Source: Promethearchaeia archaeon
Lineage (GTDB): Archaea; Asgardarchaeota; Lokiarchaeia; Sigyniarchaeales; SOKP01
Direction: 5' to 3'
Length of the DNA stretch: 64,000 nt
NCBI GenBank assembly: GCA_046483985.1
Contig: JAWOCD010000005.1
Coordinates: 52,655-116,654 of the forward strand
In this document: positions 33,920 through 53,334 of the stretch, in pieces
How the letters are laid out: every line of letters starts with the position of its first letter
Numbering within the stretch: the first letter of the stretch is position 1
Notes under the pieces: model-generated
What the model was told of the DNA's origin: nothing
The model's input: only the letters and a program-made list of their open reading frames with translations
Databases searched by the model: none
Translations under genes and position numbers: made by a program

Positions 33920-33997
33920 TTGACAGTCAATTAGTAGTATTTGTTTTTTACTTCTAATATATTATTATATCTTTTAATATTAAATTTATTTTTATCA

Positions 33998-34025
33998 ATT
34001 CAAATCGAAGCACTTAAATCCAAAT
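33998..34025. promoter_or_regulatory. Candidate ArsR operator
   Basis: ATTCAAATCGAAGCACTTAAATCCAAAT aligns with ATTCAAATCGAAACTGATGAATTCAAAT upstream of acr3. Confidence 0.5.
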
Positions 34026-34151
34026 AACAATATCAATGAATTAAAATATATAATACAAAAACAAAAAAATGTTTGAAAATGCCTAAAAGTAAAAAGAATT
34101 ATGAAATTATAATTGAAAAAGAAATTGATAGAGATCATTAGGGTGATAAAT

Positions 34152-34610
34152 GTGAAAAAAATAACCTTTCAAATAACTATGCCGGTGAAGGAGGTAAGTA
34201 AAAATAAGGAATTTATTGTTAAAGTTGATAACCACGCGACATTTGTTAATGCCTTGGCGAAAGTGGATAAATTTGCGATGGCTCATCCCGAAAAGGCCCA
34301 TTTTTCCGATGATCATAATTATATTCGGAGTTATTTACAATTATTTTGGGATCCGAAGGAGAATGAAATTTATTCGGATATACGGGTCTTTGCAGCAAGT
34401 CCCAAAGGATTTATGCCTATAGAGCGTAATATTAATTTTAACTTGCATAATGATAGTGAGATCTCGCTTACCTCTTCCTCATGAGGGTGATGAGGGGGTT
34501 TGGGAAATCGCCCCGGTTATGCAGAATTTAAAAACATTCTCCGGAATAAATACGGAAAAGAAGATGAAACCTTTATCCATTACTTTCAAGCAAATAGAAA
34601 TAATAATTGA
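34152..34610 (+). CDS. Putative three-selenocysteine beta-grasp (MoaD/Urm1-like) protein with a U-G-U-U-G-G motif
   Basis: GGTGA SD before GTG 34152; in-frame TGA at 34482, 34488 and 34491; 38 further sense codons (GGLGNRPGYAEFKNILRNKYGKEDETFIHYFQANRNNN) to TGA 34608-34610; SECIS directly downstream. Confidence 0.75.
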
Positions 34611-34649
34611 ATGATATCCTCCAACAAATGCTAGTGGAGGGTTGACAAT
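34606..34649 (+). ncRNA. Eukaryote-type SECIS element
   Basis: AUGA (34611-14), 8-bp helix AUCCUCCA/UGGAGGGU, AAA at 34626-28 exactly 11 nt after AUGA, and GA at 34644-45 in K-turn register. Confidence 0.8.
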
Positions 34650-34764
34650 GGGATCGCATCCCAATTTTTGATCTAAAATAGATAATCTAATGATATTTAA
34701 CCTTATTAGATTACGTGATATTTGGTTTTGACAAAATGAATAAAAGAATAAGGGAAATTAATTT

Positions 34765-35160
34765 TTAGATTTCTGCCAACTTTTTTAGTTCTGGCTCGGC
34801 ATTTTCTTGGGCCCAATCAAGGAGTTGATCATAATATTTCTCTACGTCCTCCTCTGGCGGAAGGTCCGCTAAGATAGCAAGTATGAACTGCGTATTTTCA
34901 TTAATTATAATATTACGGCAAATGATGAAATCCTCTTTATATTTAATCTTCATGGATTGAAAGGCTGATAAGTCAATCTCCTCTGCAGCTTTATATGCTG
35001 ATTCACTTAGCAGTGATCCCATAGCAGCTACTACCTTTTCATCTACCTCCTCTGCTTTTTGGGATGCTAAAACTAAGCCCGCCTCCGTTGAGAAAAGCGA
35101 GGCCCTGAAATCACCATTTTCCATCAATCCTTTTAATACTCTCTCCAATCGACTAACCAC
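34765..35160 (-). CDS. Roadblock/LC7 domain protein
   Basis: FSTEAGLVLAS...VAAMGSLL helix followed by beta strands, the roadblock pattern. Confidence 0.8.
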   Translation of the reverse strand: MVSRLERVLKGLMENGDFRASLFSTEAGLVLASQKAEEVDEKVVAAMGSLLSESAYKAAEEIDLSAFQSMKIKYKEDFIICRNIIINENTQFILAILADLPPEEDVEKYYDQLLDWAQENAEPELKKLAEI

Positions 35161-51848: not shown

Positions 51849-52097
51849 TCCAACTCACGATTAAATACTTCTGATTTATCAAATGGAACGAGCAGATTCT
51901 CCAAAATAATTTCTCTCTTTTTTTCCTTACTATTGTGATTATTATCACAAGTTTGACTTCTTAAGAAGAACCAAAAATCTATCGTCTAAGAAGCCTTTTT
52001 TATTTATTTTTTCAATTTGAAGTCAATTAGTATTTGAAGTCAATTATTATTTTGATTTTTTTATATATAAATGACAATATTATATTTATAAAAATAT

Positions 52098-52128
52098 ATT
52101 CAAATCGAAACTGATGAATTCAAATCGA
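52098..52128. promoter_or_regulatory. Candidate ArsR operator upstream of acr3
   Basis: ATTCAAATCGA direct repeat with a 20-bp period, and an ATTCA-N12-TGAAT inverted repeat. Confidence 0.55.
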
Positions 52129-52185
52129 TAAATTTTAATATATCTAAATCTTATTTTAAATATAAGTCAAAATAAGTGGAATAAC

Positions 52186-53334
52186 GTGAATGATCATAAT
52201 AATAAAAAAAAATGGACTTGTCCTGAATGCGGACATGTAGCGTATTATGTAGGAGCGCCACCAGATCAATGTCCCCTATGTGGTGAGGAATTGAGTTTTT
52301 TCGATAAATTCCTTCCGTTATGGATCGCAATCTGTATAATAATTGGGCTTCTACTTTCTCAATTTGTCCCTAACATCGCCGAAGCAATTGATTCTTGGCA
52401 AATTGCCGGAATTTCCGTTCCAATCGGAATTTGTTTATTTCTAATGATGTATCCCGCAATGTTAAATCTTAAAGGTTCCGAAATTAAAAAATTGGGCCGC
52501 AATCCAAAACCCATAATACTTTCTCTTTTATCTAACTGGTTTGTTGCTCCTTTAGTGGGTCTGTTAATGGCGATTACATTTCTAGGAGGTAATCCGCAAT
52601 TAGTACTTGCTATAATATTACTGTCTAGTAGTCCATGTACTGCAATGGTTTTGGTATGGGGATGGATGGCAAAAGGAAATCAAGAGCAAAATGTTATAAC
52701 AACAAGTTTGAACACAGTTACCATCATCTTCTTTTATGTGCCGATGGTTTATTTATTAGTTTCATTGGCAAATCTTACATTAACAGAACCTATACCCTTA
52801 GATATTTTTCAATTACTGATTTCACTAGTGGTCTTTATCGGTCTACCACTTATAGTGGGATTAATAAGTAGAAAAACTCTAACGGATACAAAAGGGAAAG
52901 AATGGTTTGATGAAAAATATCGCCCCGCAGTCGGAAAAGTTGCGATCCTAGCACTTTTGATGACATTAATTATTCTATTCTCCTTAAATGGGGTTGTTCT
53001 AATTAAAAACCCTACCCTATTACTTCTAGTAACAATCCCATTGCTTCTTGGATTTGCCATTGTCGTAGGATATAATATTTTAGTTACAAAACTACTAAAA
53101 TTAAGATACAGGCAAGCTATCATTACGGTAATTATCGGATCATCCAGTCACTTTGAAATTGCTATTGCTGTAGCCGTTGCAATGCATGGTGTCGGTTCGA
53201 TCGCTGCCTTAGGTACTACTATGGGTTTGTTTTGGGAAGTGCCCGTGATGGTTTCGTTAGTATATTTGGGGAGATATCTTGGAAGACGTGGTTATTGGAA
53301 AGGTTACAAAGAAGCAATTACAAAATATACATAA
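52186..53334 (+). CDS. acr3: ACR3 arsenite efflux permease with an N-terminal rubredoxin-like domain
   Basis: FFDKFLPLWI, MMYP, SPCTAMVLVW, HFEIAIAVA and EVPVM motifs; N-terminal WTCPECG...PDQCPLCG. Confidence 0.93.
   Translation: MNDHNNKKKWTCPECGHVAYYVGAPPDQCPLCGEELSFFDKFLPLWIAICIIIGLLLSQFVPNIAEAIDSWQIAGISVPIGICLFLMMYPAMLNLKGSEIKKLGRNPKPIILSLLSNWFVAPLVGLLMAITFLGGNPQLVLAIILLSSSPCTAMVLVWGWMAKGNQEQNVITTSLNTVTIIFFYVPMVYLLVSLANLTLTEPIPLDIFQLLISLVVFIGLPLIVGLISRKTLTDTKGKEWFDEKYRPAVGKVAILALLMTLIILFSLNGVVLIKNPTLLLLVTIPLLLGFAIVVGYNILVTKLLKLRYRQAIITVIIGSSSHFEIAIAVAVAMHGVGSIAALGTTMGLFWEVPVMVSLVYLGRYLGRRGYWKGYKEAITKYT

Follow-up and report, generated by a model that had tools for sequence, protein, structure and literature searches.

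We analyzed a gene lying in a 64,000-nucleotide stretch of contig JAWOCD010000005.1 from a Promethearchaeia archaeon (positions 52,655 to 116,654 of the forward strand, hereafter the window), and found that it encodes a small and apparently undescribed selenoprotein of ubiquitin/MoaD-like fold that carries adjacent selenocysteine (Sec, U) residues. A Gly-Gly that follows the Sec cluster in the window is lost from most of the family, the C-terminal tail behind it is conserved, and the gene is linked to arsenic-resistance (ars) operons and to an ArsR regulon. The genome to which the window belongs is a Promethearchaeota (Lokiarchaeia-type) metagenome-assembled genome of 4.06 Mb with 35% G+C. An earlier note on this DNA, made from the sequence alone, had proposed a selenoprotein resembling MoaD, Urm1 and SAMP that might be cut after the Gly-Gly to serve as a selenium-rich carrier, metalloid chaperone or conjugatable tag. 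Loci read in related genomes and in the genome of the window are designated by L-numbers, and contigs of the latter by C-numbers.

Translation of positions 34113-34613 of the window with TGA read as Sec yielded, in this order, the peptide blocks KKITFQITMP, KEFIVKVD, ATFVNALAKVD, IRVFA and LHNDSEISL, followed by TSSS-U-G-U-U-G-G, a tail of 36 residues (LGNRPGYAEF...ANRNNN) and a fourth TGA at 34608-34610, so that the peptide blocks, the SSSUGUUGG stretch and the tail length described in the earlier note were all recovered. Translation probably starts at the GTG at 34152, given that the KKITFQ segment, which lies upstream of an internal ATG, is kept in the orthologs. The resulting protein is organized as a beta-grasp body (residues 1-110), a Sec loop and a C-terminal helix. 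The features of the locus are compiled in Table 1.

A protein search recovered 16 clusters of homologs, all of them unannotated and all ending at the equivalent TGA. At the DNA level, nine loci from other genomes and two paralogs from the genome of the window itself could be read in frame across their TGA codons, two or three in number, and on into a conserved tail, and none of the 48 non-redundant copies of the gene lacked the TGA-TGA pair, the frame or the conserved tail; full-length forms with W-G-W-W arise from some gene callers that read TGA as Trp. Over the 31 codons 3' of the cluster, comparison of seven orthologs revealed 151, 144 and 361 differences at the first, second and third codon positions, respectively; counted by codon, 212 differences were synonymous and 232 non-synonymous, and we conclude from this third-position excess and from the synonymous counts that the tail is translated and under purifying selection. 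Termination at the first TGA, with a protein of 110 residues and downstream conservation due only to an RNA element, is how gene callers end the gene; we give this reading next to no credence, as it is opposed by the coding signature of the tail, by the class-wide retention of both the frame and the TGA-TGA pair, and by the presence of Sec machinery and of a selenocysteine insertion sequence (SECIS) like that seen at selenoprotein genes already known in this genome.

This SECIS element is of the Loki (eukaryote-like) type, and its core lies directly 3' of the selenoprotein stop codon. It consists of an AUGA core (34611-34614), a stem of 8 bp (34616-34623 with 34635-34642) closed by an A-rich loop of 11 nt, and a GA at 34644-34645. 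In an alignment of 15 3' untranslated regions (3'UTRs), 98% of the stem cells were paired and compensatory changes were present in six of the eight pairs, a degree of pairing equaled by none of 500 shuffles, with slid controls being about 50% paired. A covariance model built from the element retrieved the three family copies of the genome and, after them, two VhuD genes at their 3' ends; both of these carry known Sec sites, and one is preceded by HdrA. A second, short hairpin (UGGGA...UCCCA), which follows the SECIS closely on its 3' side, has five pairs, with 89% of cells paired and compensatory changes in two pairs. An Rfam scan detected no SECIS, the Rfam models not extending to the Loki type. 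In form the element agrees with the lokiSECIS that Mariotti et al. described (PMC4989117) and with the eSECIS-like model, type I, of Huang et al. (PMC11227280), and unrecoded UGA stops beside the SECIS core, as at 34608, have been reported in Loki genes (PMC4989117). The fourth TGA was considered as an additional Sec codon and rejected, as orthologs have TAA or TAG at this position and the codon adjoins the SECIS core at a distance of 1 nt.

The genome also encodes tRNA-Sec (C17:67637-67729), with an adjoining gene for SepSecS (390 bits); the tRNA gene is immediately upstream of the SepSecS gene, the two occupying C17:67637-69118. The selenoprotein claim of the earlier note was thus borne out by the frames of the homologs, the SECIS, the Sec machinery and the coding signature of the tail. 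A single Loki-type SECIS in the 3'UTR would recode all three UGA codons of the cluster, the fourth serving as the stop. At L007:6379-6395 a gene with U-G-U-U ends 12 nt before a gene with G-C-U-U, and a SECIS is found only after the second gene; one SECIS apparently serves both, as described for HdrA-VhuD in Lokiarchaeota. Elsewhere in the genome of the window, a further match to the SECIS model (33 bits) was found at C8:27196-27253, downstream of a small open reading frame that contains one in-frame TGA (...D-D-G-G-U-S-T...); its product has an acidic stretch, is predicted to be membrane-anchored and may be another unlisted selenoprotein.

The invariant feature of the family is a vicinal Sec-Sec pair, found as U-G-U-U or, more often, as G-C-U-U, and never seen as Cys in the copies read. 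Just before the pair stands a third soft ligand, which is Sec in U-G-U-U and, in G-C-U-U, a Cys placed closer by one residue; a subgroup has D-U-U only. Several genomes have a U-G-U-U gene followed about 100 nt on by a G-C-U-U gene. When 400 genomes of the phylum were searched with a profile, the selenoprotein family was found in 137 of them, including 117 of the 134 genomes of the family to which the window belongs and most of the sampled genomes of six further families belonging to the same order and class, and in no other sampled family. Every one of the matches listed had two or three in-frame TGA codons, and the ...C-U-U form is present in three single-contig genomes of 4.3-6.0 Mb from the same order. 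As judged by this sampling, the family appears confined to Lokiarchaeia. Distant relatives in other archaea are proteins of about 130 residues that have no Sec and a single Cys at or near the position of the third ligand. In salt-lake metatranscriptomes, contigs identical to the window were found in four runs, none of them spanning the selenoprotein gene. The identical contigs, from two studies, cover positions 34769-35146, where a Roadblock/LC7-type gene lies on the minus strand, and therefore the organism or a very close strain lives in that habitat.

To model the protein, an alignment of 11 sequences with U entered as C was supplied to AlphaFold2, which returned a structure with a mean predicted local distance difference test score (pLDDT) of 86 and a predicted template-modeling score of 0.84. 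The modeled elements follow the order strand, strand, helix, short helix, strand, strand, helix, with confidence dropping to 65 across the Sec loop and reaching 93-94 across the C-terminal helix. Foldseek comparison with the PDB placed SAMP1, Urm1 from mouse, trypanosome and yeast, HVO_2177 and ubiquitin variants at the top (E about 0.01, target TM about 0.6). VIA-align, which is independent of Foldseek, gave Z values of 7.1 for SAMP1 (4hro), 6.9 for CysO (4n6e), around 6 for MoaD-type proteins (1v8c, 1vjk) and about 7 for the transcobalamin/intrinsic-factor beta domain, and all 50 of the 50 matches listed were beta-grasp domains aligned over model residues 1 to about 115. The model that ESM Atlas itself holds of the 110-residue database form points to the same beta-grasp families. 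The beta-grasp assignment is therefore a firm prediction, AlphaFold2, Foldseek and VIA-align concurring with the MoaD/Urm1/SAMP-like fold proposed in the earlier note. A closer evolutionary relationship to MoaD/ThiS in particular is no more than a lead, the VIA-align Z values being moderate. No match to the ThiS and Urm1 models of Pfam (PF02597, PF09138) was obtained at E values up to 10; the selenoprotein and its distant relatives matched no family in Pfam or NCBIfam, and a sequence search of the PDB found no relative of either. In the model, the Sec cluster directly follows the last strand, which is the site of the C-terminal Gly-Gly in sulfur carriers.

This position, the fold and its best matches (SAMP1, CysO, MoaD, Urm1), and the occurrence of Gly-Gly in the window and in L001 would suit a precursor of a ubiquitin-like protein or sulfur carrier that is cut by a JAMM protease after Gly-Gly to end in ...UGUUGG, adenylated by an E1 enzyme, and conjugated or (seleno)carboxylated. 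The genome also encodes E1-like proteins (five genes, of ThiF type) and JAB proteins (ten genes), located on different contigs or at a distance of about 44 kb from the paralog on contig C95. However, if such processing operated, the Gly-Gly should be constant and the tail variable among homologs, and the reverse was seen. Of the nine U-G-U-U copies (the orthologs), six continue with Ala-Lys and one with Gly-Asn-Gly-Gly, leaving Gly-Gly in the two already named; the 39 paralogous copies have it in no case, neither in the 36 with G-C-U-U, where Glu-Lys mostly follows, nor in the three with D-U-U. The tail, suggested to be a possible pro-peptide, is instead conserved to the same degree as the body, has invariant positions (K, K and H-Y-F, with near-invariant R, F, R and G in the alignment of orthologs), is under purifying selection and folds with high confidence into the terminal helix. 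Neither do the sulfur-carrier profiles match the sequence, nor is an E1, JAMM, MoaE or ThiG gene among the conserved neighbors of the family loci. We consider a processed tag very improbable, and the conservation pattern indicates that the protein probably acts at full length with an internal Sec loop, being neither cut after Gly-Gly nor activated by E1 as a tag. Among the functions suggested in the earlier note, that of a metalloid chaperone fits the gene neighborhood, whereas that of a conjugatable tag is contradicted by the unconserved Gly-Gly and by the absence of linkage to E1 or JAMM genes.

Upstream of the selenoprotein gene, a divergent gene encodes a metalloregulator of the ArsR/SmtB family (PF01022, E 4e-16; NF033788, 74 bits against a cut-off of 55), orthologs of which are present in related loci. 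The region between both genes contains two operator-like boxes, AGTCAATTAGTA and ATTCAAATCGAA, that are also found upstream of acr3, a gene for an arsenite efflux transporter 18 kb downstream of the selenoprotein gene, where boxes occupy 52021-52032, 52038-52049 and 52098-52109 (region 52021-52129). In the whole 4.06-Mb genome AGTCAATTAGTA occurs only twice, once at each of these regions, and in both it precedes ATTCAAATCGAA, with a spacing of 73 and 77 nt. The shared boxes fit a common, putative ArsR operator and, together with the gene context described below, mark the selenoprotein gene as a predicted component of the arsenic-resistance operon and of the ArsR regulon.

Table 1. Features of the selenoprotein locus and of the associated arsenic genes in the window.
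Feature	Position	Strand	Basis or remark
Divergent ArsR/SmtB metalloregulator, C-V-C before recognition helix	33524..33919	-	PF01022, NF033788
Operator-like boxes AGTCAATTAGTA (33925-33936) and ATTCAAATCGAA (33998-34009), arsR-selenoprotein intergenic region	33925..34009		common to acr3 upstream region
Selenoprotein coding sequence, 152 residues	34152..34610	+	GTG start (likely), TGA stop; translation, ortholog alignment, AlphaFold2
Sec cluster U-G-U-U (TGA GGG TGA TGA)	34482..34493	+	Sec codons 34482-34484, 34488-34490, 34491-34493
Gly-Gly after Sec cluster	34494..34499	+	lineage-specific, no conserved processing site
Conserved C-terminal tail, 36 residues	34500..34607	+	helix at protein residues 123-134
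Loki-type (eukaryote-like) SECIS	34611..34645	+	covariation, covariance model
Short second hairpin, just 3' of SECIS	34649..34663	+	conserved
ACR3 arsenite efflux transporter	52186..53334	+	TIGR00832, 293.8 bits, cut-off 282.8

The gene context of the family was analyzed in 40 non-redundant loci, mostly with 1.5 kb of flank and from related, non-independent genomes. At least one arsenic-type gene (ACR3, ArsR, ArsM, ArsC-like or HgcA-like) was present in 31 of them. ACR3 was found in 19 loci, with TIGR00832 scores above the cut-off for two copies (in the window and in L035), and is often the sole partner, the pair standing alone in L035, L036, L038 and L052. A small protein with an invariant C-x-C and no Pfam family was found in 14 loci, ArsR in 12, a methyltransferase-HgcA-like fusion with an HgcB-like ferredoxin in six, and an ArsC-like reductase in five. 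The genes run in the same direction with little space between them, the typical order being acr3-(arsM)-(CxC)-selenoprotein-(arsC). In the genome of the window these parts are scattered, with an HgcAB-like island, a second ArsR and a CxC protein on contig C74. On contig C95, a paralog with G-C-U-U is directly downstream of MsrB (SelR) on the same strand (L016:4331-4753 and 5004 onward), a linkage seen in one of the 40 loci.

The CxC protein is predicted to adopt a thioredoxin/glutaredoxin fold (pLDDT 85) with the C-x-C after the first strand, and in two genomes it is fused to the C-terminus of ArsM (NF008823, 357 bits, cut-off 263). Its gene is usually immediately upstream of that of the selenoprotein, as in L017:11050-11331, L004:5546-5974 and L040:1156-1452, and in fused form in L045:2004-3125. 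The HgcA-like fusions have 554-560 residues and join a CpaM-type S-adenosylmethionine (SAM) methyltransferase to an HgcA-like corrinoid/transmembrane domain with the cap-helix motif N-V-W-C-A-A-R-G. They were found at L004:3509-5173, in L002, L003, L005 and L031, and in the genome of the window at C74:59660-61348 (L017:5013-6695), in an operon with ArsR, DUF166 and ACR3-like genes. Their best NCBIfam matches are the HgcAB-like fusion, HgcA and CpaM models, all under their cut-offs (153-183 bits against 275 for HgcA), and the HgcB-like 2x[4Fe-4S] ferredoxin encoded after them, which ends in Cys-Cys, also scores under its cut-off; the pair therefore represents a paralogous system. The ArsC-like proteins are arsenate reductases of the low-molecular-weight phosphatase type (TIGR02691, 122 bits, below the cut-off of 174), and their genes lie in Lokiarchaeia ars operons at L044:975-1442 and L050:1864-2235, and in L007, L043 and L046. 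Asgard lineages have been reported to lack arsC, and the acr3 and arsM genes reported for them were described without mention of selenium (PMC10060404).

As to function, we put at about even odds that the selenoprotein is an ArsR-controlled carrier of arsenite or a similar soft metalloid, a reading in which metalloid binding and hand-over are inferred from the neighboring arsenic genes and from what is known of how As(III) is coordinated. In ArsR, ArsD and ArsA, As(III) is held by three soft ligands, and vicinal Cys pairs are a hallmark of ArsD and HgcB. In the proposed mechanism, ArsR would derepress the selenoprotein gene when As(III) is present, and the vicinal selenolates, along with the third Sec or Cys, would bind As(III), or a soft metal like Hg(II), more tightly than thiols. 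The bound As(III) would then be handed over by ligand exchange, either to ACR3, which would export it, or to an arsenite methyltransferase or the HgcAB-like corrinoid methylase, a step in which the neighboring thioredoxin-fold CxC protein may assist. More tentatively, and with somewhat less than an even chance in our judgment, the family could represent a beta-grasp domain of the sulfur-carrier type that was recast in Lokiarchaeia as an encoded, selenium-based As(III) carrier feeding ACR3 and corrinoid/SAM methylases.

Several points weigh against an arsenite carrier. Three consecutive or nearly consecutive residues may, for steric reasons, make a poor site for one As(III), and the D-U-U subgroup has the Sec pair alone. 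The family members in closed genomes (L055-L058) have no ars gene inside 1.5 kb. The neighborhoods of five distant Cys-only relatives show no consistent functional theme, as one adjoins an HMA-thioredoxin gene and a P-type ATPase and the rest lie beside ribosomal or housekeeping genes; because these relatives have one Cys and such neighborhoods, it is unlikely that the family originally served to handle arsenic. Finally, the MsrB gene beside the paralog in the genome of the window, and the likeness of G-C-U-U to the G-C-U-G of thioredoxin reductase, point to redox chemistry. The protein would in that case be a redox carrier whose Cys-Sec-Sec or Sec-x-Sec-Sec loop alternates between the selenolate form and a selenenylsulfide or diselenide, as the tail of thioredoxin reductase does, with arsenate reductase, an ArsM disulfide cascade, the thioredoxin-fold CxC partner or MsrB as proposed clients. 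That G-C-U-U is the commonest motif (36 of 48 copies), that a thioredoxin-type ArsC-like reductase and the CxC protein, with its ArsM fusions, figure among the neighbors, and that most known selenoproteins are redox proteins (PMC4989117) all speak for such a role. On the other hand, the commonest and often only neighbor, ACR3, is a transporter with no need for redox partners, a dedicated reductase for the selenoprotein is not encoded nearby, and the MsrB linkage is confined to a single locus, for which reasons we regard a redox carrier as the less likely possibility, at perhaps one chance in a few. Redox and carrier roles are not mutually exclusive.

A partnership with mercury or organometal chemistry, in which the selenolates would capture Hg(II) or another methyl acceptor for the CpaM-HgcA-like protein and the HgcB-like ferredoxin, seems improbable to us. 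Genes with UGUU and CUU directly follow those two partners in L002-L005 and L031, and bacterial HgcA and HgcB have Sec forms (PMC13188914). The HgcA-like gene is nevertheless present in a minority of the loci, six of the 40, scores well under the NCBIfam HgcA cut-off and, in the genome of the window, lies on a contig other than that of the selenoprotein gene, with ACR3 and ArsR being the commoner partners. The arsenite carrier is our preferred reading.

Neither the family nor its linkage to ars genes was encountered in the literature searched, so that both look undescribed. The 2016 study of Loki selenoproteins covered five families (PMC4989117), the 2024 Asgard survey seven (PMC11227280) and a 2026 review of archaeal selenoproteins eleven; the present family is among none of these, and a text search of the literature for adjacent or consecutive selenocysteines returned nothing relevant. 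It would constitute a widespread addition to the archaeal selenoproteome that homology-driven surveys missed. With two adjacent UGA codons recoded by one eukaryote-like SECIS, the family would be a natural system in which to test the processive insertion of Sec within the lineage that stands closest to eukaryotes. The gene context points to an unrecognized accessory module of Asgard ars operons, composed of a beta-grasp selenoprotein and a CxC protein, and sometimes of an HgcAB-like corrinoid methylase, which would link the use of selenium with the handling of arsenic or mercury in anoxic sediments. In this protein a ubiquitin/MoaD fold would bear its reactive chalcogen at the equivalent topological spot by means of side chains and not of a modified C-terminus. 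If correct, this would be the first selenoprotein of an arsenic operon in archaea, and a natural protein built on adjacent selenocysteines.

Comparison with known systems places the family near several of them. With MoaD, ThiS, CysO, SAMP and Urm1 (PF02597, PF09138), its best structural matches, it shares the fold and a reactive chalcogen on a flexible segment right after the last strand, which in those proteins is a C-terminal thiocarboxylate. The selenoprotein differs from them in lacking a sequence match, a conserved terminal Gly-Gly and linkage to E1, JAMM, MoaE or ThiG genes, and in that its chalcogens are encoded internal Sec and Cys side chains followed by a conserved helix. The G-C-U-G tail of thioredoxin reductase resembles the G-C-U-U of the paralogs in presenting a Gly and then adjacent Cys-Sec on a flexible segment, whereas the selenoprotein has a second Sec, continues into a helix, has no flavoprotein domain and occurs in an arsenic context. 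Bacterial metal-linked selenoproteins, which include Sec forms of HgcA and HgcB as well as SaoC, MbdU and ArsM double selenoproteins (PMC13188914), likewise have Sec proposed as a ligand of Hg or As and are encoded beside methylation or transport genes, but none is a beta-grasp protein, their listed motifs have no Sec-Sec, and they are bacterial with a bacterial SECIS. The known Asgard selenoproteins (SelD, FrhA/VhuU, HdrA, FrhD/VhuD, and Prx-like, AhpF-N-like and DsbA-like proteins; PMC11227280, PMC4989117) have in common with the present one the Loki-type SECIS, several Sec per SECIS and a UGA stop beside the SECIS core; the family described here is not listed among them, and it concentrates three Sec within four residues. 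No Pfam match to the ArsD family (PF06953) was obtained for the selenoprotein. With ArsD, as generally known, it nonetheless shares being a small accessory of ars operons with vicinal pairs of soft ligands and the same proposed role. ArsD is thioredoxin-like and uses Cys, whereas the selenoprotein is a beta-grasp protein that uses Sec, is archaeal and found in Lokiarchaeia only, and would have ACR3 or a methylase, not ArsA, as its partner. By this analogy, we infer that the selenoprotein may be a functional analog of ArsD, of another fold and based on Sec.

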